From a virus: a stretch of DNA of 64,000 nt. The stretch is taken from the IMG/VR virus record IMGVR_UViG_3300042311_001406, positions 27,323 through 91,322 of that record; one strand, given 5' to 3'. The notes below the pieces were generated by a model, which saw only the letters and a program-made list of their open reading frames with translations, was not told the DNA's origin and searched no databases. The translations under genes and the position numbers were made by a program. Below, piece by piece: positions 4,311 through 28,627 of the stretch. Numbering within the stretch: the first letter of the stretch is position 1; each line of letters opens with the position of its first letter.

Positions 4311-4347
4311 CTCTCGTCTGACGATGTCGGCGTCGTCAGGTTCGCAC

Positions 4348-5061
4348 TCAGGCTTCAGCGGCGCCAGGCGTGAAGCTGTCGTCGGTGTGGTCGGCGTCAG
4401 CAGCGGCCACTGGCGTGTTCTCGCTGGTGTCGACCGCCGCGGCGGCAACGGCCTTGGCCTTCTTGGCTTTCTTGGTCACGATCACGATCTCAGCCTTCGC
4501 GGCCTTGGCTTTCTTCGCGGCAGGCGCCGCCTTCTTCGAGGCCTTCGCGGCCTTCGCCGCCGCCTTCTTCGGCTCAGCCTTGGCCTTCGCCTTCGTGGCC
4601 TTGGCCTTCTTGGCGGCGGGGGCCGCCTTCTTCGCAGCCTTCGTGGCCTTCTTGGCTGGGCCAGACTTGGGCGCCTCATCGAAGTGCCACGCGTCGACAG
4701 TCGAGCAGCGGGGCGTGTAGTAGTGGACGTTGCCCTTCTCGTCGGTCGAGGCCACGAGGTACCGGCGATGAGCGCTCTGCGGGGTGCGGGTCTCGACACG
4801 CGACGGCAGGGTCTTGGCGGGGACGTGCTTCCACGCGTCGACGTTCTCGGCGAGGAACTTCTTGACGACGCCAGACTTGACGTTCCACTCGCCGCGGACC
4901 TGCGAGGACCACTCGACCGTGGTGCCAACTTCGATCCGAGGCTTGTAGGCGGCAGGCGCCGCGCTCTTGGCCTTCACCTTGGCAGCCTTGGGGGCCTTCG
5001 TCGCCTTGGCAGTCTTCGCGGCTTTCGCCGGCTTCTTCTTCGAGTTCTTCTTGCTGGCCAT
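4348..5061 (-). CDS. histone H1-like Lys/Ala-rich protein with a central globular domain
   Basis: Start at ATG 5061 (AAGGGAAG upstream). KKAA/PAAKKA repeats flank a ~85-aa beta-rich domain. Confidence 0.75.
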   Translation of the reverse strand: MASKKNSKKKPAKAAKTAKATKAPKAAKVKAKSAAPAAYKPRIEVGTTVEWSSQVRGEWNVKSGVVKKFLAENVDAWKHVPAKTLPSRVETRTPQSAHRRYLVASTDEKGNVHYYTPRCSTVDAWHFDEAPKSGPAKKATKAAKKAAPAAKKAKATKAKAKAEPKKAAAKAAKASKKAAPAAKKAKAAKAEIVIVTKKAKKAKAVAAAAVDTSENTPVAAADADHTDDSFTPGAAEA

Positions 5062-5160
5062 GTGATTCTTCCCTTGCGTGAGCGGTTGGACTTCCCTTAT
5101 AGGATCGATGCAGATGATCACAGCCTCGGATCGGCTGTCAACACGAAACTGGAGGAAATA

Positions 5161-5841
5161 GTGAGCGTTCAGACGAATACCAGCATCAAGAAGATGATTT
5201 CTGAAGACGAGATCATCATGAGGCCCATGCGCCCGGAGCAAATCAACAACGGGAGCGTCGACGTCACACTGGGCCGGTTCGCGTGGCGCCTCAAGGACAA
5301 GTTTCGTAACGACTTTGATCCAAGCAAGCCGCTGATTGGGCAGCTTTGCGTCTGCCCAACGGCCATGGTCGGACACGACATCTTCGACCTTGTCGACATC
5401 CAGCGAGACCACGGAGGTCAAATCTGGTTCGGCCCTGGTGAACGGATGATCATGCACACGCATGAGTTCATCGGAAGCCGACATCGCTCCCTTCCAGAAA
5501 TGCGCGCAAAGAGCTCGTCCATGCGGTGGGGGTTCACCTTGTCAGGGGACGCCGGATGGGGTGATGTAGGCTTCTTTTCGAGGTGGGCAACGGAGCCCGT
5601 CAACTTCAATCCATGCCCAATGGTTCTGGCTGTTGGCCAGCTGGTCGGCCAGGTCATCTTCCACGCCGTCGAGACACCGGAGGCTGGCACCCTGTATCAC
5701 GAAAAAGGGAACTACCAGAACGAGAGCGACATCGAGGAGATCATCAAGAGCTGGCATCCGCGCGATCTTTTGCCAAAGAGGATGAAAGTCGTTCCATTTG
5801 AAGCGATGAACGACGCGGACCGTTTTGGAGTGCAGCCATAG
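5161..5841 (+). CDS. dcd: dCTP deaminase (trimeric dUTPase superfamily)
   Basis: GTG start with GGAGG; QINNGSVDVTLG, KSSSMRWG, DVGF..TE, GQVIFH, GNYQN. Confidence 0.85.
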   Translation: MSVQTNTSIKKMISEDEIIMRPMRPEQINNGSVDVTLGRFAWRLKDKFRNDFDPSKPLIGQLCVCPTAMVGHDIFDLVDIQRDHGGQIWFGPGERMIMHTHEFIGSRHRSLPEMRAKSSSMRWGFTLSGDAGWGDVGFFSRWATEPVNFNPCPMVLAVGQLVGQVIFHAVETPEAGTLYHEKGNYQNESDIEEIIKSWHPRDLLPKRMKVVPFEAMNDADRFGVQP

Positions 5842-13893: not shown

Positions 13894-13922
13894 ATGACCG
13901 TCGGTTCCCGGCAACGTAGAAT
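13894..13922 (+). promoter_or_regulatory. sigma70-like promoter, leaderless
   Basis: ATGACC-N17-TAGAAT, with ATG 13930 7 nt after the -10 box. Confidence 0.5.
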
Positions 13923-13929
13923 TGCCGGC

Positions 13930-14892
13930 ATGACGAAACCGACGGCCATCTCTTTGTCTGCTGCAGTCCAAGGGCTCCCGCCTTCGGACGTGAATCGCCC
14001 TGTCCGCAGCCTGGAGACAGACCTTTGGTTGGTGCTGAGCGGCAGTGGGGCAAAGTACCCTGCCTACTTCGGCGCCGTGCGGCGCTTCATCACCAAGTAC
14101 GGCCGCCGCTTCAGCCGCTTCTGTGGCTGCAGTGGTGGGGCCTTGGCGGCCGCCTTGATGGCGACCGGCAAAGACATCCAGGAGTGCATCGAGATCGCGA
14201 AGGCCATCAACCCGAGCGAGTACCTCGACAGCAACATCTTCACGCCTGCTGTCATCGTGTGGCCATTCAACAACGAAGGTCTCTACGACGGCGACAAGCT
14301 GCTTGGAGTGCTCCGCAAGGTCTTCAAAGGACTGAAGATGGCTGACCTGCAGCATGAGCTGCACGTCGTCACCTACAACATCCAGCGCAAGCAGACGATG
14401 ATCTGGGGCAACCGCCCCATCAACCATCCGAATGCTGTCTACGCTCCAGACATGGAGGTTGCGCTTCTGGTGCGGGCCAGCATCAGCCTCCCGCTGATCT
14501 TCAACATGGTGAAGATCAAGTACAACCGTCTCATCGGCGGCAAGGTCGTCGAGGACTACCACATCGACGGCGGCGTCGGCGGGAACTTCCCGATCGACAT
14601 CTTTGGCGACAGTTCACGAGTTGTTGGCCTCAGGTTCAAGCAGCAGAGCCAAGATGTCGCGACGCCCATCAACAACAAGATCGACCTGATCTCCTCTGTT
14701 GTTGACGCCTTCATCGACTCAACCATGAAGGAGCACATTGAAGATGCGCTGCACGCAAAACAGGTTCACATCGACACGAAGTTCAACGGCCTCGACTTCA
14801 ATCTGACGCCTTCAGCCTTCAACGGACTGATGCAGGATGGGGAACGCTGTGTCGACCAATGGATGAAGGAGAATGCTGATGACGCTCGCTGA
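13930..14892 (+). CDS. patatin-like phospholipase
   Basis: LVLSGSGAK oxyanion loop, GCSGG nucleophile elbow, ASISLP, catalytic DGG. Confidence 0.9.
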   Translation: MTKPTAISLSAAVQGLPPSDVNRPVRSLETDLWLVLSGSGAKYPAYFGAVRRFITKYGRRFSRFCGCSGGALAAALMATGKDIQECIEIAKAINPSEYLDSNIFTPAVIVWPFNNEGLYDGDKLLGVLRKVFKGLKMADLQHELHVVTYNIQRKQTMIWGNRPINHPNAVYAPDMEVALLVRASISLPLIFNMVKIKYNRLIGGKVVEDYHIDGGVGGNFPIDIFGDSSRVVGLRFKQQSQDVATPINNKIDLISSVVDAFIDSTMKEHIEDALHAKQVHIDTKFNGLDFNLTPSAFNGLMQDGERCVDQWMKENADDAR

Positions 14893-15211
14893 AATCGGTT
14901 TGCTCATGCGGGATCTCGGCGGATGGGGTGTCTCAGCCGTCCTTTTGTACGCTTTGAAGAAAATCTATGATGACAAGGAGGCTGCGGCCAAGAAGTACAG
15001 CGTCGAGAAAGACGAAAACTTCAAGATGATTCTTTCGATAAGCGAGAACATGGCTGAGGTGTTGGCGACCAACACCGAGACGAGTCGTGCCCTGAGTGCT
15101 AACCTGCACGAGCTGCGAGACCGCTTCTTGTCAAATGGCAAGGCTGGCGCTGGCAGCCGAACCTTGCTGGCGGGCACCTCAGAAGATGGTCGTTCGCACG
15201 GAGACAGATAG
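14879..15211 (+). CDS. holin-like single-TM protein (BhlA/UviB-like architecture)
   Basis: AAGGAG RBS; one N-terminal TM (LGGWGVSAVLLYAL) followed by a coiled coil. Confidence 0.5.
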   Translation: MTLAEIGLLMRDLGGWGVSAVLLYALKKIYDDKEAAAKKYSVEKDENFKMILSISENMAEVLATNTETSRALSANLHELRDRFLSNGKAGAGSRTLLAGTSEDGRSHGDR

Positions 15212-15213
15212 CC

Positions 15214-15606
15214 ATGACGTTCATCAAGAAGCTGTTCGATCGTATCGGCAACGTGTCGCCGCGCTGTGAGGCACCATCGGACACAGCCAGCATCGGCAAG
15301 ATTCTCGTCGATGCTGGCCGCATCTCAAGCGATCAGCTTCAAGAAGTCACCGTCTCCCAGAAGCACATTACAGAACGGGTCATCAGCGACGAGATACTGC
15401 GTCGCGGATGGGTCGACGAAGAAGACATGAAGCGCGCGCGCTCCATCCAAGCGAAAATTCAAGCTGGTGACGAGATGCGCGCCCAGATCGAAATCACCCA
15501 GATGCGCCTCAGTGAGGCCCTACGCGTCGAGAAGAACCTGAAGGCTGTCGTCAGGACCACGATGCCAATGCTCACGGCCATGAGCGCCATCTCCGCGGAC
15601 TCCTGA
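15214..15606 (+). CDS. MshEN-like domain protein (degenerate)
   Basis: Two 24-aa repeats with MshEN spacing: SIGKILVDAGRISSDQLQEVTVSQ and VISDEILRRGWVDEEDMKRARSIQ. Confidence 0.6.
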   Translation: MTFIKKLFDRIGNVSPRCEAPSDTASIGKILVDAGRISSDQLQEVTVSQKHITERVISDEILRRGWVDEEDMKRARSIQAKIQAGDEMRAQIEITQMRLSEALRVEKNLKAVVRTTMPMLTAMSAISADS

Positions 15607-15635
15607 AGACAGACGCAGCCTCGGCGCTGTATGCG

Positions 15636-15664
15636 TCGACTTGGCACCATGATTCATGTAACCT
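15636..15664 (+). promoter_or_regulatory. sigma70-like promoter
   Basis: TCGACT-N17-TAACCT in an intergenic gap. Confidence 0.4.
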
Positions 15665-15699
15665 TGCAGTCGCCAATGTTGGCGCCTTTGAGGTGAGTC

Positions 15700-16132: not shown

Positions 16133-16582
16133 ATGGCTGACGACGTCAACATTCCAGATGCAAGCGATGTCCCCACTCCGATCGCTACTGATGAGGTGGC
16201 TGCTCGGCATCATCAGCTCGTCAAAATGGAGTTTGGTGAGGACGGCGTGGCTACGCCTGTCAGCGCAGCCAACCCGATGCCGACCACGCTGTTCGGCGAG
16301 GTCGTTGAGCAGCTGTCGGCGATCCGCATGCTGCTGCAGTCGATGATGAAAGCAAGCATGGGCTCCCTCCCCGACGTCGCAGGCCGCATGCGCGTCAACG
16401 TCGAAACAGGATCAGTGGGTGTGAGTTCACTGCCAACGCTTGGCACGGTGACGACCGTGACGACGGTTGCATCCCAAACGAACCAGGTGAACATCGGCGG
16501 CCTTCCGGCCATCGAACAGATCCCATCCCTTATGCGCCTTGGCGCTGACTCGCTGCGCCGAAACATCACGGTGACACCATGA
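16133..16582 (+). CDS. hypothetical fibre-cassette protein
   Basis: GGAGG RBS; VSAANPMP and TVTTVTTV motifs. Confidence 0.6.
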   Translation: MADDVNIPDASDVPTPIATDEVAARHHQLVKMEFGEDGVATPVSAANPMPTTLFGEVVEQLSAIRMLLQSMMKASMGSLPDVAGRMRVNVETGSVGVSSLPTLGTVTTVTTVASQTNQVNIGGLPAIEQIPSLMRLGADSLRRNITVTP

Positions 16583-18018
16583 CCACCACGAATGGCAATC
16601 GACCGATTTTGGATCTCAAGCGCTGGGAGTTCTGCGCGCCAGCGCCAGTAGCGTCCGCTGCTGGATCGTTTATCATGTCATCACGACACCACCGACAGCG
16701 TCAGCTGTACATCGTCAATGCGACGACGCACTACCTCTACATGCCGGAAGAAGATGGTTGGGTGCAGATTCCCAGCGGCGCGCTCGCGGGAACATTTGCG
16801 GCTGGTGCCTGCGGAACAGGCACAGCTGTTGGCCCATCAGGCACTGCAACAGTCGCGTCGACGACGTCGACGATCGTCAGCAACTTGAACCTGCAGCGCG
16901 ATCTCCGTGGCTACTCGTTGTTTGTGACGGGCGGCCCCAACGCGGGCGCAACGCTGAAGATCCTGAGCAACACGATTGGCGCCAACAGCGTGATCACGGT
17001 GGCCACACAAGGCACAGCGTTCAACGCTAGCACCACGTTCCGCTTGTTCACGCCTCGGTGGTACGTTCTCAACGCCATCACGGCATCAGGAACCACCACC
17101 GCGAACGTGTTCAAAATCTACGACCTGGCAACCAACACTTGGTCCGCCGCAGAAACAGGCGCAACTGACGGCGTTGCTCCAGCTGCAGTCATCGGCACCG
17201 ATGGAAAGCTGATCGCTACGCCATCATGGGTTGACGATGACTACGTGTCGTTCGCGACAGGGACCGCCACTGCAGGTGCGACCAGCACGTTGACGTTCGG
17301 CAGCGCAAACTGGGCTGTCAACCAGTGGGCCAACTCACAAGTCCGCATCTCGGCAGGCACAGGCGCTGGTCAGATTCGCAGCATCACTGCCAATACAGCA
17401 ACCGTGTTGACGGTAGCAGCGCCTTGGACCACTCCGCCAGATGGAACGTCGGTGTTCTCGATCGAAGGGAATGACGACTACATCTATTACACCGGATCTG
17501 GTGCCACCGCAGTCTTTCGATATTCGATTTTGTCGGGTGCTTGGCAGTCGATGACTGCTCGTGGCGGTGCACCTGGGGCCGGCATGTCTGGTCATTGGAT
17601 CTATGAGGTCGATGATCCGGCGTGGAACCTTCCAAATGCCATTTTGAATGGTCGGTACATCTACTCGTTCCGCGGCGCCAACGGCGCTGTGCTGGATCGG
17701 TACGACATTGCCGCCAATACCTGGACGACGTTGTCGTATGCGCCTGCTGCAGAGTTGATCAACACAGGCGCTAAGCACGTCTACCGAAAAAACTTCATCT
17801 ACACCCAGCAGCTCAACACGGGTCGATGGTTGGTGTTCAACATCGTCACCAGCGGACAAAACGGCTTTTCCACGATGATGTACACTCAGGGAGCCGCAGT
17901 CGTTGGCGACACAGCCTTCGATGTACACTACCGAGACGGCACAACTCAGATCGACTATGTGTACATGCTGTTGAACACGTCGACGGTTTTGCTGCGGTGC
18001 ATGATCATCAACGACTGA
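16579..18018 (+). CDS. kelch-like beta-propeller protein, putative receptor-binding
   Basis: Repeated YD...NTW / RYSI...W / RYDIAANTW blades; Thr/Ala-rich. Confidence 0.6.
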   Translation: MTTTNGNRPILDLKRWEFCAPAPVASAAGSFIMSSRHHRQRQLYIVNATTHYLYMPEEDGWVQIPSGALAGTFAAGACGTGTAVGPSGTATVASTTSTIVSNLNLQRDLRGYSLFVTGGPNAGATLKILSNTIGANSVITVATQGTAFNASTTFRLFTPRWYVLNAITASGTTTANVFKIYDLATNTWSAAETGATDGVAPAAVIGTDGKLIATPSWVDDDYVSFATGTATAGATSTLTFGSANWAVNQWANSQVRISAGTGAGQIRSITANTATVLTVAAPWTTPPDGTSVFSIEGNDDYIYYTGSGATAVFRYSILSGAWQSMTARGGAPGAGMSGHWIYEVDDPAWNLPNAILNGRYIYSFRGANGAVLDRYDIAANTWTTLSYAPAAELINTGAKHVYRKNFIYTQQLNTGRWLVFNIVTSGQNGFSTMMYTQGAAVVGDTAFDVHYRDGTTQIDYVYMLLNTSTVLLRCMIIND

Positions 18019-18034: not shown

Positions 18035-19633
18035 GTGACACTGCTGCTCCTGCTGTCAGGGCGAAGGGCGAGTGCCGCCAGCGGTGTTACCGGCACTGGC
18101 GCCATCACGCTTGGCATCAACGAGACGGGTGTTGGCTCACCTGTCATCGTCGCCACTGGTGGTGCCGGCAGCTTGGGTGTGGTGGTGGCTGGCGCTGGCA
18201 CCGCTGGCGCTGCCCCCATCACCGGCACTGGCTCTATCGCCCTTGGCTTTGCCGAGGCTGGTGCTGGCGCTCCAGTTGTCACAGGCGCTGGCACTGGTGT
18301 CTTGGGTCTCACCGAGACTGGTACTGGTAGCAGCACGGTTACAGGCGCTGGTACTGGTGCCCTTGGCATCACTGAGGCTGGTGCTGGCGCTCCAGTTGTT
18401 ACTGGCTCTGGTGCCATCGCCATGGGCCTCGCCGAAGCTGGTGCCGGCAGCAGCACGGTCACAGGCGTAGGCGCAGTCACGACGATTAGCTTGACGCCTG
18501 CGGCAGCGGGGTCGCCGGTTGTCGCAGGTTCTGGCGCCATTGCCCTGGGGACAACGGTCTCAGGCGTCGGTGGTTCCTCGACAGCCGGGGCTGGCGCGAT
18601 TTCCTTGGGGATCGCGGTCGCTGGTGCAGGAAACAGCACGGTCGTCGGCACGGGCGCCATTGCGCTTTCGATCACACCTGCTGGCGTTGGACGCCCAATC
18701 GGCACTGGCACTGGTGCCATCGCGATCGGCCTATCACAGGCGGCAGCGGGATCGCCCGTCGTCAAAGGCGATGGTGCCGCCACCGTCGTCGGCATCACGC
18801 CGACCGGCTCTGGCCGTCCCATCGTCACCGGCGCTGGGTCCATTGGACTTGGTCTCGCCGTCAGCGGTGCCGGAGCACAAGCATCAGCAGCCAGTGGCGC
18901 CGTCACTCTGGGCGTCACGCCAGCCGGCGCTGGCTCGTCGGTGGTCACCGGTGCCGCAACAGCTCAGACCATTGGTCTCGCGGCTGCTGGCGCTGGCGCT
19001 CCGGTTCAGCGCGGTACTGGCAGCAGCGTCATTGGCTTCAGCGCCAGCGGCACCGCCTCCGTCATCGTCGCCGGCAGCGGCGGCCCCAGTGTTGGCCTCG
19101 CGGTTGCCGCCAGCGGAACCGTCGTTGTTCCCGGCACAGCCGCCATCCCCGTCGGCCTGTCGTCGACAGGCATCGGCGGCATGGTTGTCGTCGGCACAGC
19201 TGCCGGCAGCATGGGCCTGTCGTCGACTGGTTCAGGCGCGCCAGTCCTCCAGGGCAGTGCTGCATCTACTGTCGGCGCACTGACTTCCAACGGCGCAGGT
19301 AGCCCCGTCGTCAACGGTCAAGGATCGGCTGGCACTGACTTCTCTGTTTCTGGCGTCGGTGATCCAGTTGTCTCTGGCAGCAGCCAGGTCACTGTTGAGC
19401 TGTCGTCATCTGGCGACGTCAACATCACCATCCTGGGCGACGGGAACACTGTCGTAGGATTTGAGGCCACAGGCGAAGGTCGTGTCCTCAATACGACGTA
19501 CTTTGGAATCATTCTCGGATCGATTGAGGATTTGAGCGTTCTCTCTTGCTCCATCTCCGACGAAAGAGAAGAGATCTTCGCGACCGTCGACAACGATGCC
19601 ACCGTCATCGCGACATCAATCGAAATGCTGTAG
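18035..19633 (+). CDS. Gly/Ala/Thr-rich repetitive fibre protein
   Basis: Roughly 20-aa periodic repeat G(S/T)GAIALGxxxAGxGxPVVT. Confidence 0.65.
   Translation: MTLLLLLSGRRASAASGVTGTGAITLGINETGVGSPVIVATGGAGSLGVVVAGAGTAGAAPITGTGSIALGFAEAGAGAPVVTGAGTGVLGLTETGTGSSTVTGAGTGALGITEAGAGAPVVTGSGAIAMGLAEAGAGSSTVTGVGAVTTISLTPAAAGSPVVAGSGAIALGTTVSGVGGSSTAGAGAISLGIAVAGAGNSTVVGTGAIALSITPAGVGRPIGTGTGAIAIGLSQAAAGSPVVKGDGAATVVGITPTGSGRPIVTGAGSIGLGLAVSGAGAQASAASGAVTLGVTPAGAGSSVVTGAATAQTIGLAAAGAGAPVQRGTGSSVIGFSASGTASVIVAGSGGPSVGLAVAASGTVVVPGTAAIPVGLSSTGIGGMVVVGTAAGSMGLSSTGSGAPVLQGSAASTVGALTSNGAGSPVVNGQGSAGTDFSVSGVGDPVVSGSSQVTVELSSSGDVNITILGDGNTVVGFEATGEGRVLNTTYFGIILGSIEDLSVLSCSISDEREEIFATVDNDATVIATSIEML
18209..19480 (+). 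repeat. degenerate ~60-bp coding tandem repeat
   Basis: For example GAGGCTGGTGCTGGCGCTCCAGTTGT occurs at 18254 and 18374. Boundaries approximate. Confidence 0.6.
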
Positions 19634-22978: not shown

Positions 22979-23196
22979 TCAACATGTTCAAGAAAGCCTG
23001 GTCGTGGATCGTCATCTTCTACCAGACCGCTGTCTTCCTTCGTGACCGCAACACGGAAGCTCGCCTGCGCTCTGCGCGTGAGCTCGACGACACCAACCCA
23101 GACCTGAAGACGAGGATCGACCATGAAGCCACAACCGAGCCTGGGGCGCATGCTGTTGGCGACGTCCGGCATGTTGGTCGAGAAGACAGCGTCTGA
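22975..23196 (+). CDS. small hypothetical protein
   Basis: ATGA-coupled but overlaps the next gene by 74 nt. Confidence 0.3.
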   Translation: MINMFKKAWSWIVIFYQTAVFLRDRNTEARLRSARELDDTNPDLKTRIDHEATTEPGAHAVGDVRHVGREDSV

Positions 23197-24139
23197 CGAC
23201 GAGAGCTGCTGTCCAGAGTGCAAGCGAAGCATCGCCGTGGCCAAGCGGCGGGCTCGTGCGAAAGCTGCACATCGAGATGCTCGACGCACCTGGACCAAGA
23301 CCGCGGCGGCTGTGCAGGACTACGCGGCGAAGGCCACGGCCAGCGTTCAACGCCAGTTGACCGCGCGGTTCTCCAAGATGAACCGGAACCCAGCCACTAG
23401 CCGACTGCCGGTGGCGCGGCCACCAGCCGTCGCTGCGCCCTCGCCCATGAACATGACGCGCAGCATGAGGCCAATGCGGCCGCCTCAGCCCGCTGCCATG
23501 TCGTCGATGGTGAAGCGTGCAGGTTCCATCCTGGCGCCATCTGTCGCTGGGCCACAGCCATGCATTGAAGGATGGGGAAGTGCAGCGAGTTCGGCGCTGC
23601 GAAAGCGCGTTGATGCGCTCAAGAAGAAACTGAAACCGGGAGACATCATCTCCACAGATCCGCGGCGTCCCGTTGGAGTGCATCGCGCTTTCAAAGCGTT
23701 GAGCTCGACGGTGCAAGGCACACGTTTTGGCCACTCGGCAATGTACGTTGGCAACGGCGCCATCGTTGAATCGCGAGACACGGCCGTCATCAAGCGACCG
23801 CTGCTTGATCTTGCGCGCTGCAACGAATTCGTCGTGCATCGTGTTGAGAATGCTTCGCCGACGCAGCGTCAACGTGCCGCGGCATGGATGAAGAAGCAGG
23901 TCGGCAAAGAAGGCGTCCGCACGACCGTTGGACATCTTGCGTACCGAGGCGCAAGACCAACGGCGCTAGCCGGGAAACACGAAGGAAAAAGGCAGAAGCT
24001 TGACCGCATCATCTGCAGTTCGCTCATCGCCAACGCGTACTCGCGCGTGCCCTTCAATCCAGACCGCGCAATCCTCAACCACAGACCGAATGACATCGCC
24101 AACAGCGAACATGTCACACCTGTGGCTCAGATGACTTGA
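23123..24139 (+). CDS. permuted papain-like (YiiX/NlpC-P60 superfamily) enzyme with K-x-A leader
   Basis: LKPGDII, GHSAMYVGNG (His), ICSSLIANAY (Cys), with His before Cys. Confidence 0.8.
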   Translation: MKPQPSLGRMLLATSGMLVEKTASDDESCCPECKRSIAVAKRRARAKAAHRDARRTWTKTAAAVQDYAAKATASVQRQLTARFSKMNRNPATSRLPVARPPAVAAPSPMNMTRSMRPMRPPQPAAMSSMVKRAGSILAPSVAGPQPCIEGWGSAASSALRKRVDALKKKLKPGDIISTDPRRPVGVHRAFKALSSTVQGTRFGHSAMYVGNGAIVESRDTAVIKRPLLDLARCNEFVVHRVENASPTQRQRAAAWMKKQVGKEGVRTTVGHLAYRGARPTALAGKHEGKRQKLDRIICSSLIANAYSRVPFNPDRAILNHRPNDIANSEHVTPVAQMT

Positions 24140-24218
24140 TCAGGTTGACTTCTAGTTGATCACGTGGCACAACCTCCGTCCCGTCGCTGCTCAGCGTCGA
24201 CAGGGTGGAGGAAGATGC

Positions 24219-24929
24219 ATGCGGAACAAGTACAGGAAGGATGTCTTCGTCGTTGCCGTGGAAGGCATCATCGGAGCAGGAAAGACCACGCTCACCAAGC
24301 GCTTGCGCGATGAGCTTCATCTGCATGAAGTGCCGGAGCCGGTTGAAGACAACCCGTTCCTCGAAAACTTCTACAAGGACCAAAAGAAGTGGGCCTTCCC
24401 CATGCAGATGTGGATGGTGCAGCGTCGAGCGGAGTCGATTGCTGACGCCGTCGAAAGTCACAAGAACATCATCACGGACCGCAGCCTGGTGGGAGACATG
24501 GTCTTCGCCAAGATGCACAAAGACAACGGAAACATCGACGCCGAGATGTGGCCCGTCTACCGCGACACCTGGAGCATGATGAACCGCTTGCTGGCACCCG
24601 TGCCAGACGTCATCGTCTTCCTGGATGTGAACCCCAGCACCGCGTTCAAACGCATGCACAACCGAGGGAGACAGTCCGAAGTCGACGGCGTCACACTGTC
24701 GTATCTTCAGGATCTCTGTGCCACATACCGCTCCACCATCGAGAAGTTGGGTAGCAACTTCAACGGGACGGAGTCATTCCGTCATACGCGCATCGAATGC
24801 CTCAAAGGAGACACTGATCACGCCGTGATCGTCGACATCGTCAAGCGACACATGGCCAACAAGACCGCCGCTTTCTCGAACGCCGCCGCCGCCAACGAGT
24901 ACAACAACGACAACGAGGTCAAGCTGTGA
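24219..24929 (+). CDS. deoxynucleoside kinase
   Basis: VEGIIGAGKTT P-loop, EPV, DRS, RMHNRGRQSE lid. Confidence 0.9.
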   Translation: MRNKYRKDVFVVAVEGIIGAGKTTLTKRLRDELHLHEVPEPVEDNPFLENFYKDQKKWAFPMQMWMVQRRAESIADAVESHKNIITDRSLVGDMVFAKMHKDNGNIDAEMWPVYRDTWSMMNRLLAPVPDVIVFLDVNPSTAFKRMHNRGRQSEVDGVTLSYLQDLCATYRSTIEKLGSNFNGTESFRHTRIECLKGDTDHAVIVDIVKRHMANKTAAFSNAAAANEYNNDNEVKL

Positions 24930-27900
24930 AGAACACCGTCACGATTCCATCCGCCGACTCCATCGACTACACGCTGAGCATTGCCGGCGACAAGATCGAG
25001 TGCAGGGTCCATAGCATCGACATCGTCAACTTCAACAAGCGTGACGTCGCCATCGAAGGCAGCGGCTTCAAGCAGAAGGATGTCGAGGCTCCTGACTTCT
25101 GGAGCGACACGGCCGTCCGCATCGTCGCCAACAAGTATTTCCGCGGCCACGACAGCGATCGCGAGAACAGCGTCAAGCAGCTGGTTGCTCGTGTCGTCGG
25201 CTCAATCGTCGACTTCCTCGACAGCAAGGACCGTTTCGCCAGCGCCACCGACAAGCACAGCTTCAAAAGTGTCCTGACCCATCTGCTCTACGTGCAAGCG
25301 TTCGCGTTCAACAGCCCGGTGTGGTTCAACCTCGGCACCGAAGTCAGCCCGCAGTGCAGCGCTTGCTTCATCCTCGGCGTCGACGACAACATCGAATCCA
25401 TCCTCAAGTGGATCAACGACGAAAGCCTCGTCTTCCGTCGTGGCAGCGGTGCCGGCGTCAACATCTCCCGCATCCGCCACAAGAACGCGCGTCTGCAGGG
25501 CGGCGGCCACGCCAGCGGCCCGCTGAGCTTCGCCAACGGCGCCAACTACATGGCCGGCGCCATCAAGAGCGGCGGCAAGACGCGTCGCGCGGCCAAGATG
25601 CTGGTCATGAACGACAACCACCCCGACGTCTTCGACTTCATCGACACGAAGTCGATTGCCGAGCGCGTCGCCAAGGCGCTGATCGCTGGTGGCTTCAGCT
25701 CGAAGTTCAATGCCGAAGGCGGCGCCTACGAGCTCGCCCCCTGGCAGAACGCCAACAACAGCGTGAGCCTGTACGACCGCTTCCTCAATGCCGTCTTGGT
25801 CGACGGAGACCATGACCTCGTTGACCACAAGGGCGCTGTGGTTCGCACCATCAAGGCTCGCGAGCTGTGGCGCAAGATGGGTGAGGCAGCCTGGGAATCC
25901 GGTGACCCCGGCCTCCACTTCCGTGACACGATGAACCGCTTCAACACGGTCGCAGAAGATGGCGAGATTGAAGCCAGTAACCCGTGCTGCTTCACCGGCG
26001 AGACGCTCGTCGACACCAGCGAAGGAAAGATCCGCATCGACGAACTCGTCGCTCGAAGCCAGCGCGGTGAGGACCTGCCAATGGCATGGGCCTTTGACCT
26101 TGAATCGTCGCTGCCTGTCTTGCGCCGCATCGTCAAAGCCTGGAAGGCCGGCGACGCGACCAAGCTTGTCCGCGTCACGACGGACCGCGGCATCAGTGTG
26201 TTGTGCACACCTGAGCACCGCTGGCTGAAGCGCAATGGCGCTTGGGTGGAGGCTCAGCATCTGAAAGCTGGGGACAGCCTGCGCAAAACGGCGCGCTGGG
26301 TGAACAAGGATCGCTCTGGTCGCCACTGCTTGAACATGCGTGGCACAGAGTCAGCGCCAAACGGAACCGTCTGGCAGAACCGATACATGTGGGAGCAGGC
26401 CTATGGACCAATTCCTGACGGCATGGAAGTTCACCACAAAAACGGAGACCCGACTGACGACCGCCTCAGCAACTTTGAGCTGATCCCTGTCAGCGATCAT
26501 CGCTCTGAACACTCGGCTGGCGACGAGAACCCACGTTTCATTGACGTGGAAGATCATGTGCTTGTGGAGGCGTGGGATGCTGTCGCTGCCGGCAGAAAGC
26601 GTGGTTCCGGTGTGACGCCAACAACATGGAACGCACACATCAACAGCAATGGGCTCAAAGGACATCTGCCGTTGGCTGCATCACCAACGAACGGAGGGCG
26701 AATCCAAGGCATGCCTTGGGCGGAGTTCGAGAGCAAGATCAACGAGCTGCGTTCATCTGTGAACGATCGCGTCGTCAGCGTCGAGTTCATTGCCAACGAC
26801 ACGGCGACATCCGTCTTCGACATCGAAGTTGAAGGCGTGCACAACTTCTCGGTGACCAGCCCCGGCGCTGTTCATTCGGTCGTGGTGCACAACAGCGAGT
26901 ACCTGTTCATCAACAACACCAGCTGCAACCTCGCGAGCTTCAACCTCGTGCGGTACATGATCCGTGACGGTCTCAAGCGCGTGTTCAACTGGCGCGCATT
27001 CCAGCGTGACGGCTTGGCGATGTACCTGTGTCTCGACGCCATCGTCGACATCAGCAGCTACCCGACGCCAGAGATCGACGAGACGACCCGCAAGTACCGC
27101 ACGCTTGGTGCCGGGTACGCCAACATTGGCGGCATGCTGATGCGTATGGGCATTCCGTACGACAGCGACGAAGGCCGTCACATGATCGCCGTCATCACCA
27201 GCGCGCTCCAGGGCACCATGGTCTGCAACAGCATGAAAGCTGCTGAGGCCTGGGGCACATTCGATCGCTACGAAGCGAACCGTGATCACGTCGACAAGGT
27301 GATTCTGTCGCACTACAACGCACAGGTCGGGCTGACCTACAACAAAGACGACGTGGTGTGGAATCCGTGGCAGCACTACGAGCAGACTGTCCTGCGAGAC
27401 AACACGAAGATCGCGCGTGTGCGCAACGCGCAGTTCACGGTCGTGGCGCCCACTGGCACCATCGGCTTCATGATGGACGTCGACACGACGGGCATCGAGC
27501 CAGACTTCAGCCTGGTGAAGTACAAGGAGATGGTTGGCGGCGGCTACATGACGCTGGTCAACACCGCGATGTCCGAAGGCCTCGAAGTGCTGGGCTACGA
27601 TGAGGAGACGCGCAAAGCCATTGAGGCGCACGTCACAACCACTGGCGGTGTCGTCGAAGGCGCTCCCGGTCTGAAGCCAGAGCACTACGGCGTCTTCGAC
27701 TGCGCGGTCGCAGCGTTCGGCGGCACACGCTTCATTCGCCCTGAGGCGCACATTGAGGCCATGGCCGAGGCGCAGCCGTTCCTCAGCGGCGCCATCAGCA
27801 AGACCGTCAACATGCCAGAGTCGTCGACGGTGGATGACATCCTCGACATCTACATGAAGTCGTGGAAGCTGGGTCTCAAAGCTGTTGCCGTCTACCGCGA

Positions 27901-28627
27901 CAACTGCAAGCAGAGCCAGCCGCTCAGCACCTCGAAGACGACGGACAAGGGCAGCGCCACCGTCATCCTTGAGTCGGCTCCAGCGACGTCGATGTCTTAC
28001 GACGACATGACGATCTGCAAGTTGGAAGCGCAGATCAAAGACCTGAAGTCGATCATTGGCAGCCTGCGACGTGGAGAGCGTGAGCGCCTGTCGACGTCGC
28101 ACATGGGCCACATCCACAAATTCACCATTCAGGGGATGAGTGGCCACTTGACGGTCGGCTTCTACGACGATGGCCGCATCGGCGAAGTCTTCGTCGAGAT
28201 GAGCAAGGAAGGCAGCACCGTCGGTGGCTTCCTGGACGCCTGGAGCAAGGCATTCTCGCTCATGCTGCAGTACGGCGCTCCGCTGACTGAAGTCCTGCAG
28301 AAGTTCGAGGGCAGCCGCTTCGAGCCATCTGGCTTCACGCTCAACGAGAACATCCGCACCTGCACATCGGTGATCGACTACGTCAGCCGCTACATGAAGA
28401 TGCTGAGCTCAAGCGCACCGAAGGCGGCTCCGATGCTCGACAGTGCCCCTGGCGACCATCAGGTTGAGGAAGGTGAAGACGTCGACGATTCGCACGTCCC
28501 GTCAAACACGCAGAAGTTCGTCGACACCAATGGTCGCATCTGTTCGTCATGCGGAAGCAGCAACCTGCGTCAAAGCGGCGCCTGCTTCGTTTGCAATGAG
28601 TGTGGCTCAAGCACGGGGTGTGGCTGA
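24926..28627 (+). CDS. nrdJ: class II (B12-dependent) ribonucleotide reductase with intein
   Basis: FNSPVWFN, QCSACF, GGKTRRAA, NPC|SEY, SCNLAS, APTGTI, SGAISKTVN; C-terminal TSCPD-like domain and Zn ribbon. Confidence 0.92.
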   Translation: MKNTVTIPSADSIDYTLSIAGDKIECRVHSIDIVNFNKRDVAIEGSGFKQKDVEAPDFWSDTAVRIVANKYFRGHDSDRENSVKQLVARVVGSIVDFLDSKDRFASATDKHSFKSVLTHLLYVQAFAFNSPVWFNLGTEVSPQCSACFILGVDDNIESILKWINDESLVFRRGSGAGVNISRIRHKNARLQGGGHASGPLSFANGANYMAGAIKSGGKTRRAAKMLVMNDNHPDVFDFIDTKSIAERVAKALIAGGFSSKFNAEGGAYELAPWQNANNSVSLYDRFLNAVLVDGDHDLVDHKGAVVRTIKARELWRKMGEAAWESGDPGLHFRDTMNRFNTVAEDGEIEASNPCCFTGETLVDTSEGKIRIDELVARSQRGEDLPMAWAFDLESSLPVLRRIVKAWKAGDATKLVRVTTDRGISVLCTPEHRWLKRNGAWVEAQHLKAGDSLRKTARWVNKDRSGRHCLNMRGTESAPNGTVWQNRYMWEQAYGPIPDGMEVHHKNGDPTDDRLSNFELIPVSDHRSEHSAGDENPRFIDVEDHVLVEAWDAVAAGRKRGSGVTPTTWNAHINSNGLKGHLPLAASPTNGGRIQGMPWAEFESKINELRSSVNDRVVSVEFIANDTATSVFDIEVEGVHNFSVTSPGAVHSVVVHNSEYLFINNTSCNLASFNLVRYMIRDGLKRVFNWRAFQRDGLAMYLCLDAIVDISSYPTPEIDETTRKYRTLGAGYANIGGMLMRMGIPYDSDEGRHMIAVITSALQGTMVCNSMKAAEAWGTFDRYEANRDHVDKVILSHYNAQVGLTYNKDDVVWNPWQHYEQTVLRDNTKIARVRNAQFTVVAPTGTIGFMMDVDTTGIEPDFSLVKYKEMVGGGYMTLVNTAMSEGLEVLGYDEETRKAIEAHVTTTGGVVEGAPGLKPEHYGVFDCAVAAFGGTRFIRPEAHIEAMAEAQPFLSGAISKTVNMPESSTVDDILDIYMKSWKLGLKAVAVYRDNCKQSQPLSTSKTTDKGSATVILESAPATSMSYDDMTICKLEAQIKDLKSIIGSLRRGERERLSTSHMGHIHKFTIQGMSGHLTVGFYDDGRIGEVFVEMSKEGSTVGGFLDAWSKAFSLMLQYGAPLTEVLQKFEGSRFEPSGFTLNENIRTCTSVIDYVSRYMKMLSSSAPKAAPMLDSAPGDHQVEEGEDVDDSHVPSNTQKFVDTNGRICSSCGSSNLRQSGACFVCNECGSSTGCG
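25988..26893 (+). mobile_element. intein (302 aa) with an HNH-type endonuclease domain
   Basis: N-terminal CFTGETLV, block B TPEH, HHKNGDPTDDRLSN, block F VFDIEVEGVHNF, C-terminal VHN|S. Confidence 0.9.

Follow-up and report, generated by a model that had tools for sequence, protein, structure and literature searches.

How do phages without recognisable spanins, or even endolysins, open the envelope of their host? The question is raised by three adjacent genes at 13894-15606 (+ strand) of a 64,000-nucleotide stretch of virus DNA (positions 27,323 to 91,322 of IMG/VR record IMGVR_UViG_3300042311_001406), hereafter the window, which forms the final 64 kb of a record of 91,322 bp whose completeness is estimated at ~50%. 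They encode a patatin-like phospholipase, a small protein with a hydrophobic N-terminal run (ORF2) and a protein whose N-terminal part resembles MshEN_N, a fold that binds c-di-GMP, the cyclic dimer of guanosine monophosphate, in bacteria (ORF3). A sequence-only reading had seen here a phospholipase-assisted lysis or membrane-remodelling unit, possibly timed by the c-di-GMP status of the host. Do the three genes belong together? Is ORF3 a sensor? What would a phage gain from a lipase? The picture that emerges is of a conserved ORF2-ORF3 pair placed beside an exchangeable hydrolase, and the probable role of the unit is to assist in breaking the envelope of the host late in infection, not to sense c-di-GMP. 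We give about an even chance to its being an accessory lysis module that is expressed late, is directed at the membrane and consists of two separable parts.

Three coupled genes and an obligate pair

The three genes lie within a long co-directional block. The patatin-like gene (13894..14892, + strand) encodes 332 amino acids (aa) from the ATG at 13894 (public gene call P0003), with other possible starts at TTG 13891 and ATG 13930. ORF2 (14879..15211, + strand; 110 aa from ATG 14879, public call P0080; alternative start 14873) begins 14 nucleotides (nt) inside the end of the patatin gene, overlapping its stop, and a GGAG at 14868-14871 lies 7 nt ahead of its ATG. ORF3 (15214..15606, + strand; 130 aa) starts 2 nt after the ORF2 stop. 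The tight coupling noticed from the sequence alone is borne out by this overlap and spacing. The unit ends with a 93-nt intergenic gap (15607..15699) for which no promoter or terminator consensus was reported. Upstream of the unit are a gene for a 766-aa tail-like protein and four small genes of unknown function, and the first gene after the gap matches PHROG 3758, a virion structural protein. The two promoters that had been placed around the unit find no support: the site at 13894-13922 matches the consensus at 9/12 positions, falls inside the called patatin open reading frame (ORF) and is one of 2 sites in 5 kb, against 1.1 ± 1.2 in shuffled sequence, and at 15636 the promoter scan reported no site. 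The earlier observation is therefore partly confirmed: coupling, motifs and MshEN likeness stand, as do the genes themselves, and the promoters fall away. A DNA search of cultured phages with the window gave no match.

Are these genes kept together elsewhere? From IMG/VR and JGI metagenomes, pattern scans based on the alignments of the patatin and of ORF3 recovered 38 loci, whose six-frame ORFs were all searched with hidden Markov models (HMMs) made from our own alignments and whose maps were then read. ORF2 and ORF3 are an obligate pair: an ORF2-like gene followed by an adjacent ORF3-like gene is found in all 14 distinct phage lineages having upstream DNA, and every computed junction abuts or overlaps by 1-20 nt. 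What stands beside the pair varies. A patatin flanks it in 4/14 lineages, namely the window, L002 (=L017/L025), L019 (=L026) and L010. The order is patatin-ORF2-ORF3 in the first three and ORF2-ORF3-patatin in L010 (5337-6777; IMGVR_UViG_3300037308_000217), where both junctions overlap; the source of L010 is a complete 110.4-kb genome with direct terminal repeats. The linked three-gene unit of the sequence-only reading thus has counterparts in three other uncultured phage lineages, once permuted, and what does not survive is any idea that the linkage is obligate.

In five more lineages the equivalent place is taken by a hydrolase of a second kind. There, a YiiX/C92-like cysteine peptidase precedes the pair (L022 group, L022:3586-4568; L024/L039, L024:4448-5325; L028:555-1070; L030:3403-4328; L037:895-2028), directly in L028 and with one ~100-aa gene between in L022, L024, L030 and L037. 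These enzymes have 170-230 aa and invariant SH...YD...CxE residues; their profile matches the PDB entry 3KW0, a 'cysteine peptidase' of the YiiX-type permuted papain kind, with E 5e-4, and YiiX itself (2if6) weakly, and no Pfam family reached E 0.1. Upstream of the enzyme, 4/5 of these lineages carry a small hydrophobic protein. That of L030 (60 aa) has two hydrophobic helices above the hydropathy threshold, and those of L022, L024 and L037 (103-111 aa) appear multi-pass by eye only and fail the hydropathy scan. The arrangement looks like a holin-endolysin set, and the C92-like enzymes are a candidate for an undescribed endolysin family. In the other five lineages (L018, L020, L029, L033, L035) no enzyme next to the pair is recognisable. 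The pair is thus the conserved core and the adjoining hydrolase is exchangeable, patatin-pair linkage being recurrent and facultative. It is the presence of the same pair beside other hydrolases in related phages that argues for an envelope-breaking role rather than for c-di-GMP sensing.

Properties of the three proteins

The patatin matches Pfam PF01734 with E 3.8e-28 and 99.4 bits (cut-off 27.7) over profile positions 1-190 of 191. Across an alignment of 14 sequences (the window copy and 13 relatives, the closest 47% identical and the others 32-37%), three elements are invariant: the SGSG oxyanion loop (14038-14049, + strand), the GxSxG motif, here GCSGG, with the predicted nucleophile Ser codon at 14131..14133 (+ strand; column S68), and the DGG motif with the predicted catalytic Asp codon at 14566..14568 (+ strand; D213-G214-G215). 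The intact GxSxG/DGG dyad reported earlier is confirmed, and the window patatin is apparently an active phospholipase. An AlphaFold2 (AF2) model built on this alignment has a predicted local distance difference test (pLDDT) score of 81 and a predicted template-modelling (TM) score, pTM, of 0.81. Residues 1-27 fall below 50 in pLDDT; the N-terminal ~40 residues are an extension, predicted to be disordered, that is missing in most relatives. Foldseek aligns the model with CapE, Pat17, PlpD and CapV at E 5e-15 to 2e-13 (TM 0.6-0.68, identity 12-19%), and since the CBASS effectors CapE and CapV, plant patatin-17 and PlpD match it equally, the fold is that of a generic compact patatin. A search of 50,697 deposited phage records found no related patatin at E<=1e-5, PHROGs assigned it no family, and no loci were recovered by single-protein scans that used P0018, P0004 or the patatin of the window.

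Is this patatin then a relative of CapV, the lipase of cyclic-oligonucleotide-based anti-phage signalling systems (CBASS) to which it had been likened? With CapV/CapE (PDB 8ZR9, 9IOQ; PMC12480259) it shares a compact, single-domain patatin fold of ~300 aa without a separate sensor domain, and these two are its top Foldseek matches (E 5e-15, TM 0.63-0.67, 17-19% identity). Unlike them, it is phage-encoded and sits among late genes, and its activation by nucleotides is indicated by no test here. At the family level the analogy fails: the NCBIfam model CBASS_lipase NF041079 gives 25.6 bits where its cut-off asks for 200, PADLOC models of phospholipase effectors match only partially (E 3e-11 to 1e-4), and the fold is as near to the plant patatin and PlpD. 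No CD-NTase cyclase was noticed among the examined neighbours, which are virion or unknown genes, although no cyclase HMM was run.

ORF2 opens with a short amphipathic stretch and continues with a GGW motif, a hydrophobic run (residues ~13-26, 14 residues; nt 14915-14956) and a charged, helical C-terminal part. Proteins at the same position in other phages share this layout, with LL.KGGPW or GGWGV ahead of the hydrophobic run and the charged helix. In an hhalign comparison with six positional homologues the window ORF2 aligns over 80 columns (E 3e-5, probability 73%), and the ORF2 family HMM matches the same position in other loci. The 'holin-like' label is weak for the window copy. The protein is small, its C-terminus is charged and many relatives have a clear transmembrane segment: on the Kyte-Doolittle (KD) scale 4/6 aligned relatives reach 1.66-2.06 in a 17-residue window, and several further ones exceed 1.6 in a 19-residue hydropathy scan. 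The window copy itself reaches only 1.21 in its top 17-residue window, under the usual threshold of 1.6. Nor is ORF2 a canonical two- or three-helix holin. A Lys/Arg cluster directly follows the hydrophobic run throughout the family, as read from the sequences, and this charge bias suggests an N-out, C-in topology.

Database searches do little to name ORF2. It belongs to no Pfam or PHROG family, and its six relatives gave one lone match to PHROGs, at 0.0013. Holin_BhlA, suggested through the ESM Atlas, was rejected as too weak (10% of one cluster, score 0.89), the other matches there being unnamed viral clusters. In cultured phages, matches to both ORF2 and ORF3 are at chance level only. A two-component spanin was also considered and rejected, as the N-terminus of ORF3 is polar, with neither a hydrophobic signal nor a family-conserved Cys such as the lipobox Cys of an o-spanin lipoprotein.

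ORF3 consists of a disordered N-terminus, an MshEN_N-like four-helix unit (residues 26-79) and a long helix (69-128); a single-sequence AF2 model (pLDDT 76) shows four short helices followed by one helix over 69-128. A phmmer search of 1.84 billion representatives returned 63 proteins, MshEN-bearing ones included. Part of them are look-alikes of 126-149 aa, and part are long bacterial proteins that match residues ~24-85 repeatedly; the long ones that were checked carry glycosyltransferase-2, DUF4388, T2SSE ATPase or Pfam MshEN domains. A family profile built from 11 members matches Thermus thermophilus PilF in the PDB with E 2.2e-14 (all three GSPII repeats), PilB with 3e-5 and Vibrio cholerae MshE with 1.6e-3, and these alignments coincide exactly with the published 24-residue MshEN motifs. 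The NCBIfam model NF053729, a 53-position MshE-type c-di-GMP motif, covers ORF3 residues 27-78 with E 7e-8 and 32.1 bits, the cut-off being 38. In Foldseek the bundle superposes on 5htl_A and 8pdk_B with a root-mean-square deviation of 1.8-2.2 Å over 52-54 columns (26-29% identity), at an E of ~1 because the unit is small. The name 'MshEN-like' therefore stands on the family profile, NF053729 and the superposition, despite the null result in Pfam (no match at E<=1, PF05157 MshEN included). PHROGs hold no family for ORF3 or 11 of its relatives.

The name is correct for the N-terminal subdomain only. With MshEN domains (MshE 5HTL; PilF GSPII-B 8PDK; PMC5013675) ORF3 shares the tandem ~24-residue helix-turn-helix motifs and the four-helix bundle that they form. 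Unlike MshEN proteins it stands alone, as 130 aa without an ATPase, and in place of the C-terminal alpha/beta subdomain of full MshEN it has a single long helix. One protein recovered by the scans, L036:4881-5192, was rejected as a member of the ORF3 family. It is a bacterial protein of 103 aa, encoded downstream of a ribokinase-like gene on a contig of bacterial appearance, and appears to join an N-terminus of ribbon-helix-helix type to a canonical (K/R)LG...Q / IG...Q MshEN_N motif pair; it could be a small, c-di-GMP-responsive DNA-binding protein.

Envelope breaking, sensing or coincidence

Does ORF3 sense c-di-GMP? Its two motifs, motif I (SIGKILVDAGRISSDQLQEVTVSQ; 15289..15360, + strand) and motif II (VISDEILRRGWVDEEDMKRARSIQ; 15379..15450, + strand), can be set against the published consensus (PMC5013675; for motif II also PMC12002112). 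In motif I (SIG...Q), Gly3, Gly10 and Gln24 are retained along with most of the hydrophobic positions, but Ser replaces Arg1 and Thr stands at the Leu29 equivalent. Motif II (VIS...Q) keeps Gln24 and has Val for Arg1, Ser for Gly3 and Arg at the Leu58 equivalent, and the spacer between the motifs is 6 residues (canonical 5). Across the family (n=16), position 1 of motif I is always Ser/Thr, in most cases preceded by an acidic D-D/E-P-T/S run. Arg never stands at position 1 of motif II, where the residue is mostly hydrophobic, and the spacer exceeds 5 residues in every alignable member. Distant members (L030, L035, L037 and others) retain Gly and Gln in both motifs. How damaging are such changes? 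In MshE, binding is mainly hydrophobic and changes of Arg9 cost at most about 5-fold, whereas single changes of the conserved hydrophobic (Leu) residues cut the affinity for c-di-GMP >10-fold (Wang et al. 2016, PMC5013675). The non-binding GSPII-A domain of PilF departs from the binders by small deviations, Ser for Arg and Ala for Gly, and Neissner et al. stress the Gly at motif position 3 (PMC12002112); it is this domain that the window ORF3 most resembles. Taken together with these two studies, the degraded contact positions make binding of c-di-GMP by the window ORF3 unlikely. Timing by c-di-GMP, as proposed in the sequence-only reading, is unlikely for the window copy with both Arg, the motif II Gly and two contact Leu gone, a spacer of 6 and a score of 32.1 bits against 38. 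Judged from sequence, phages have taken over a bacterial second-messenger receptor fold, whose original ligand site was probably lost.

It could still be argued that ORF3 is a working cyclic-dinucleotide receptor that controls the holin-like protein, the patatin or both, lysis then being timed by a host second messenger. The homology of residues 26-79 to c-di-GMP-binding MshEN_N and their like fold speak for it, as do the retained residues, namely Gly3 and Gly10 of motif I, Gln24 in each motif and the majority of hydrophobic positions; the better-conserved L030, L035, L037 and others; and the tolerance of MshE to Arg9 changes (PMC5013675). It has to contend with a non-Arg position 1 in 16/16 family members and a longer spacer wherever one can be aligned, with the Gly3 and Leu replacements of the window copy, of which the Leu changes are of the >10-fold kind (PMC5013675), with the like deviations of non-binding GSPII-A (PMC12002112), and with a score below the NCBIfam cut-off, the Pfam null and a search of the 91-kb record that found no GGDEF gene. 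We consider it improbable. Much the same low weight goes to a bolder proposal, that ORF2-ORF3 is a widespread, undescribed lysis-control device in which a membrane-anchored cytoplasmic sensor, descended from the c-di-GMP receptor fold, would at least in the better-conserved members read a host or defence cyclic dinucleotide and license the neighbouring hydrolase, be it patatin or C92 peptidase. If true, phages would tie the moment of lysis to the second-messenger state of the host.

How, then, might an accessory lysis module work? The single N-terminal hydrophobic helix of ORF2 would anchor it in the inner membrane and leave its charged helical tail in the cytoplasm. ORF3, which has no signal peptide and should for that reason be cytoplasmic, probably pairs with this tail through its ~60-residue helix and would thereby be tethered to the inner face of the membrane. 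Beside the pair, the phage encodes an exchangeable envelope hydrolase, here a signal-less patatin phospholipase, which may hydrolyse phospholipids from the cytoplasmic side, or once the membrane has been breached, and so add to the collapse of the envelope as infection ends. When or where the lipids are attacked would be governed by the pair, in the manner of holin/antiholin-type regulators. This lysis or membrane-remodelling role, the core of the sequence-only reading, is the best reading of the locus, on account of the C92-like neighbours, the hydrophobic proteins and an analogue in Wolbachia phage WO; the CapV-like activation and the c-di-GMP timing that came with it find no support. The genes and their coupling, the catalytic motifs, the kinship of ORF3 with MshEN_N, the fixed ORF2-ORF3 pairing and the change of neighbouring enzyme from phage to phage are observed, and enzyme activity, topology, contact between ORF2 and ORF3 and a part in lysis are inferred from sequence.

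Several observations weigh against an accessory lysis module. The hydrophobic run of the window ORF2 stays under the usual threshold, and the C92-like assignment is a weak profile match with no Pfam match behind it. The window unit lies among virion genes and not beside a recognisable endolysin or multi-transmembrane holin, and in the complete genome of L018 the only Amidase_2 match is ~32 kb from the pair. The patatin occurs without the pair in 12 other phage loci and the pair without the patatin in 10, so their dependence on one another is not obligate. Lastly, L002, L018, L019, L010 and L007 have a variable slot behind a conserved structural gene and a gene of ~55 aa; it holds patatin and pair, pair alone or patatin alone, and this shared location could partly explain the linkage.

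Could the adjacency be functionally meaningless? Patatin and pair would then be independent accessory cassettes that land in the same variable late-region slot, and the pair might serve superinfection exclusion, virion assembly or, as a decoy of the PilB/MshE N-terminus, the blocking of pili. The separate occurrences, the mixed contents of the slot and the virion genes around the window unit all fit this account, which we find rather doubtful, though the most credible of the alternatives. It has to accommodate a triad in the window phage too, whose flanking genes BLAST matched to those of no other locus except for one weak match ~6 kb downstream of the unit. Related patatins were recovered in only 15 viral-contig loci, and yet a patatin stands beside 4/14 pairs, with the second kind of hydrolase at the equivalent place in five more lineages. 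Neither are the linked patatins one clade: in a maximum-likelihood tree of 30 phage patatins, with rows of unknown context counted as unlinked, the four pair-linked ones need 4 label changes (all 500 shuffles need as few), and three of the four fall in one well-supported 15-member clade together with unlinked members. Given this scatter, one inherited triad does not explain the linkage, and in L010 the order is permuted with overlapping junctions.

The structural surroundings invite another thought, namely that the patatin is a virion-borne or ejected entry enzyme that breaches host membranes, with ORF2 and ORF3 as partners in assembly or ejection. The unit does lie in a long co-directional structural block, between the 766-aa tail-like protein upstream and the PHROG 3758 protein directly downstream, and the patatins of several relatives are likewise found between structural genes. 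A membrane anchor in members of the ORF2 family would be odd for virion cargo, however, and in other lineages the pair adjoins small hydrophobic membrane proteins and a peptidase, so this seems a poor bet. Even less can be said for counter-defence, in which ORF3 would oppose CBASS-type immunity as a sponge or decoy for cyclic nucleotides and the patatin would be a captured effector homologue. CapE and CapV are among the top Foldseek matches of the patatin and ORF3 derives from a dinucleotide-binding fold, but the plant patatin and PlpD match the patatin equally well, the CBASS_lipase equivalog scores 25.6 against 200, the PADLOC phospholipase models are weak and partial, and the binding positions of ORF3 are degenerate. 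Cyclic-nucleotide sponges, moreover, are not known to be obligately paired with a membrane protein. This last explanation we regard as very improbable.

Where is the endolysin that an accessory lysis module would assist? That none is recognisable next to the holin-like gene, as first noted, is borne out by Pfam and PHROG scans of the window neighbours. A search of the 91-kb record for Phage_lysozyme, Amidase_2, SLT, NLPC_P60 and C92 found nothing, a first look that was insensitive. An hmmscan nevertheless showed, 7.5 kb downstream of the unit, a 338-aa ORF (23123-24139, + strand) with a weak match to Peptidase_C92, the YiiX-type permuted papain family (25.4 bits, cut-off 27, E 1.6e-5), and this ORF could be the wall hydrolase of the phage. 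Kinship with the C92-like enzymes that flank the pair was considered and rejected (hhalign probability 0.2%), and the HMM of those enzymes matched nothing in the 91-kb record. Among the relatives' records, searched for Phage_lysozyme, Amidase_2, SLT, GH108 and M15_4, there were one Amidase_2 and sub-threshold traces, and in the complete genomes of L010 and L020 the five common endolysin Pfam families were not found at threshold, again in an insensitive first look. As the first look had missed the C92 trace that hmmscan saw, these negatives are soft and absence supports no conclusion.

Neighbouring genes and known lysis systems

Some features of the surroundings deserve mention in their own right. 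After the weak C92 ORF come a deoxynucleoside kinase gene (24156-24929) and a gene for the large subunit of ribonucleotide reductase (24926-28627, + strand; 1233 aa; PHROG 84, E 9e-111), in which HNH endonuclease profiles match residues ~430-536, suggesting an inserted HNH/intein-like element. The structural block includes a 479-aa protein with traces of Kelch-type repeats (16579-18018, + strand) and a 532-aa protein made almost entirely of Gly/Ala/Ser/Thr/Val-rich (G)xGAxxxG repeats (18035-19633, + strand). Further upstream, a 505-aa protein (4324-5841, + strand) matches the dCTP deaminase PHROG 1663 with its C-terminal half (E 1.6e-16), and its N-terminal ~280 residues have no assignment. 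In L002, L018, L019, L010 and L007 the conserved protein ahead of the variable slot has ~150-230 aa and the motif QGG.FW..G...GD...F.VVDK..VLGL; it has no family in Pfam or PHROG and is followed by a Lys-rich protein of ~50-57 aa.

How does the proposed unit compare with lysis systems of other phages? A lipolytic enzyme as a third step of lysis is known from mycobacteriophages, whose LysB is a cutinase-like esterase acting on mycolyl-arabinogalactan, and a cytoplasmic regulator of lysis is known from T4, whose antiholin RIII acts on the holin T, a protein of N-in/C-out topology with a large periplasmic domain. The logic of both could be at work here. A lipid-cutting enzyme would dismantle the envelope after or alongside degradation of the wall, as with LysB, and a small cytoplasmic protein would bind a single-pass membrane lysis protein at the part that lies in the cytoplasm, as with T and RIII. 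The likeness is one of logic, as neither LysB nor T and RIII are homologous to the present proteins. In full-text literature searches no paper came up that connects phage lysis genes with a protein of the MshEN type. The ORF2-ORF3 pair, an anchor with an MshEN-fold partner, is portable, accompanying two unrelated hydrolases and occurring in at least 14 uncultured phage lineages, and with its neighbours it offers a concrete gene set, so far as sequence can suggest one, for lipid-directed lysis and its control.

In the literature the nearest counterpart is a cassette proposed for Wolbachia phage WO, the 'patatin-based lytic cassette', which lies next to the tail module there (Bordenstein & Bordenstein 2022, PMC9203015); a lipase-based lysis step is as yet no more than a proposal, made for this phage. 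That cassette consists of a patatin, an ankyrin protein and a holin-like protein of <150 aa whose N-terminus holds one transmembrane segment and whose C-terminus is a charged coiled coil, and in WO relatives GH108 replaces the patatin (PMC9203015). We could confirm the layout in KX522565, where the ankyrin gene gwv_1107, the holin-like gene gwv_1106 and the patatin gene gwv_1104 adjoin tail gene D. Is the present unit the same thing? The two are analogous, not homologous. The holin-like protein of WO was rejected as an ORF2 homologue (hhalign probability 0.1% against the ORF2 family), the patatins are 19% identical, a likeness at family level only, the third gene is MshEN_N-like here and ankyrin in WO, with no ankyrin protein here, and gene order and strand layout differ. 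The argument for WO that draws on Wolbachia, a bacterium with no detectable peptidoglycan, is not applicable here. What the two loci have in common is the plan: a patatin, a protein of <150 aa with one hydrophobic N-terminal helix and a charged, coiled-coil C-terminus, and a small third protein, set beside structural genes, with the small membrane protein accompanying a second enzyme in relatives, GH108 in WO and the C92-like peptidase here. The window locus is thus an independent, non-homologous second example of the layout of patatin, small anchored protein and third protein.

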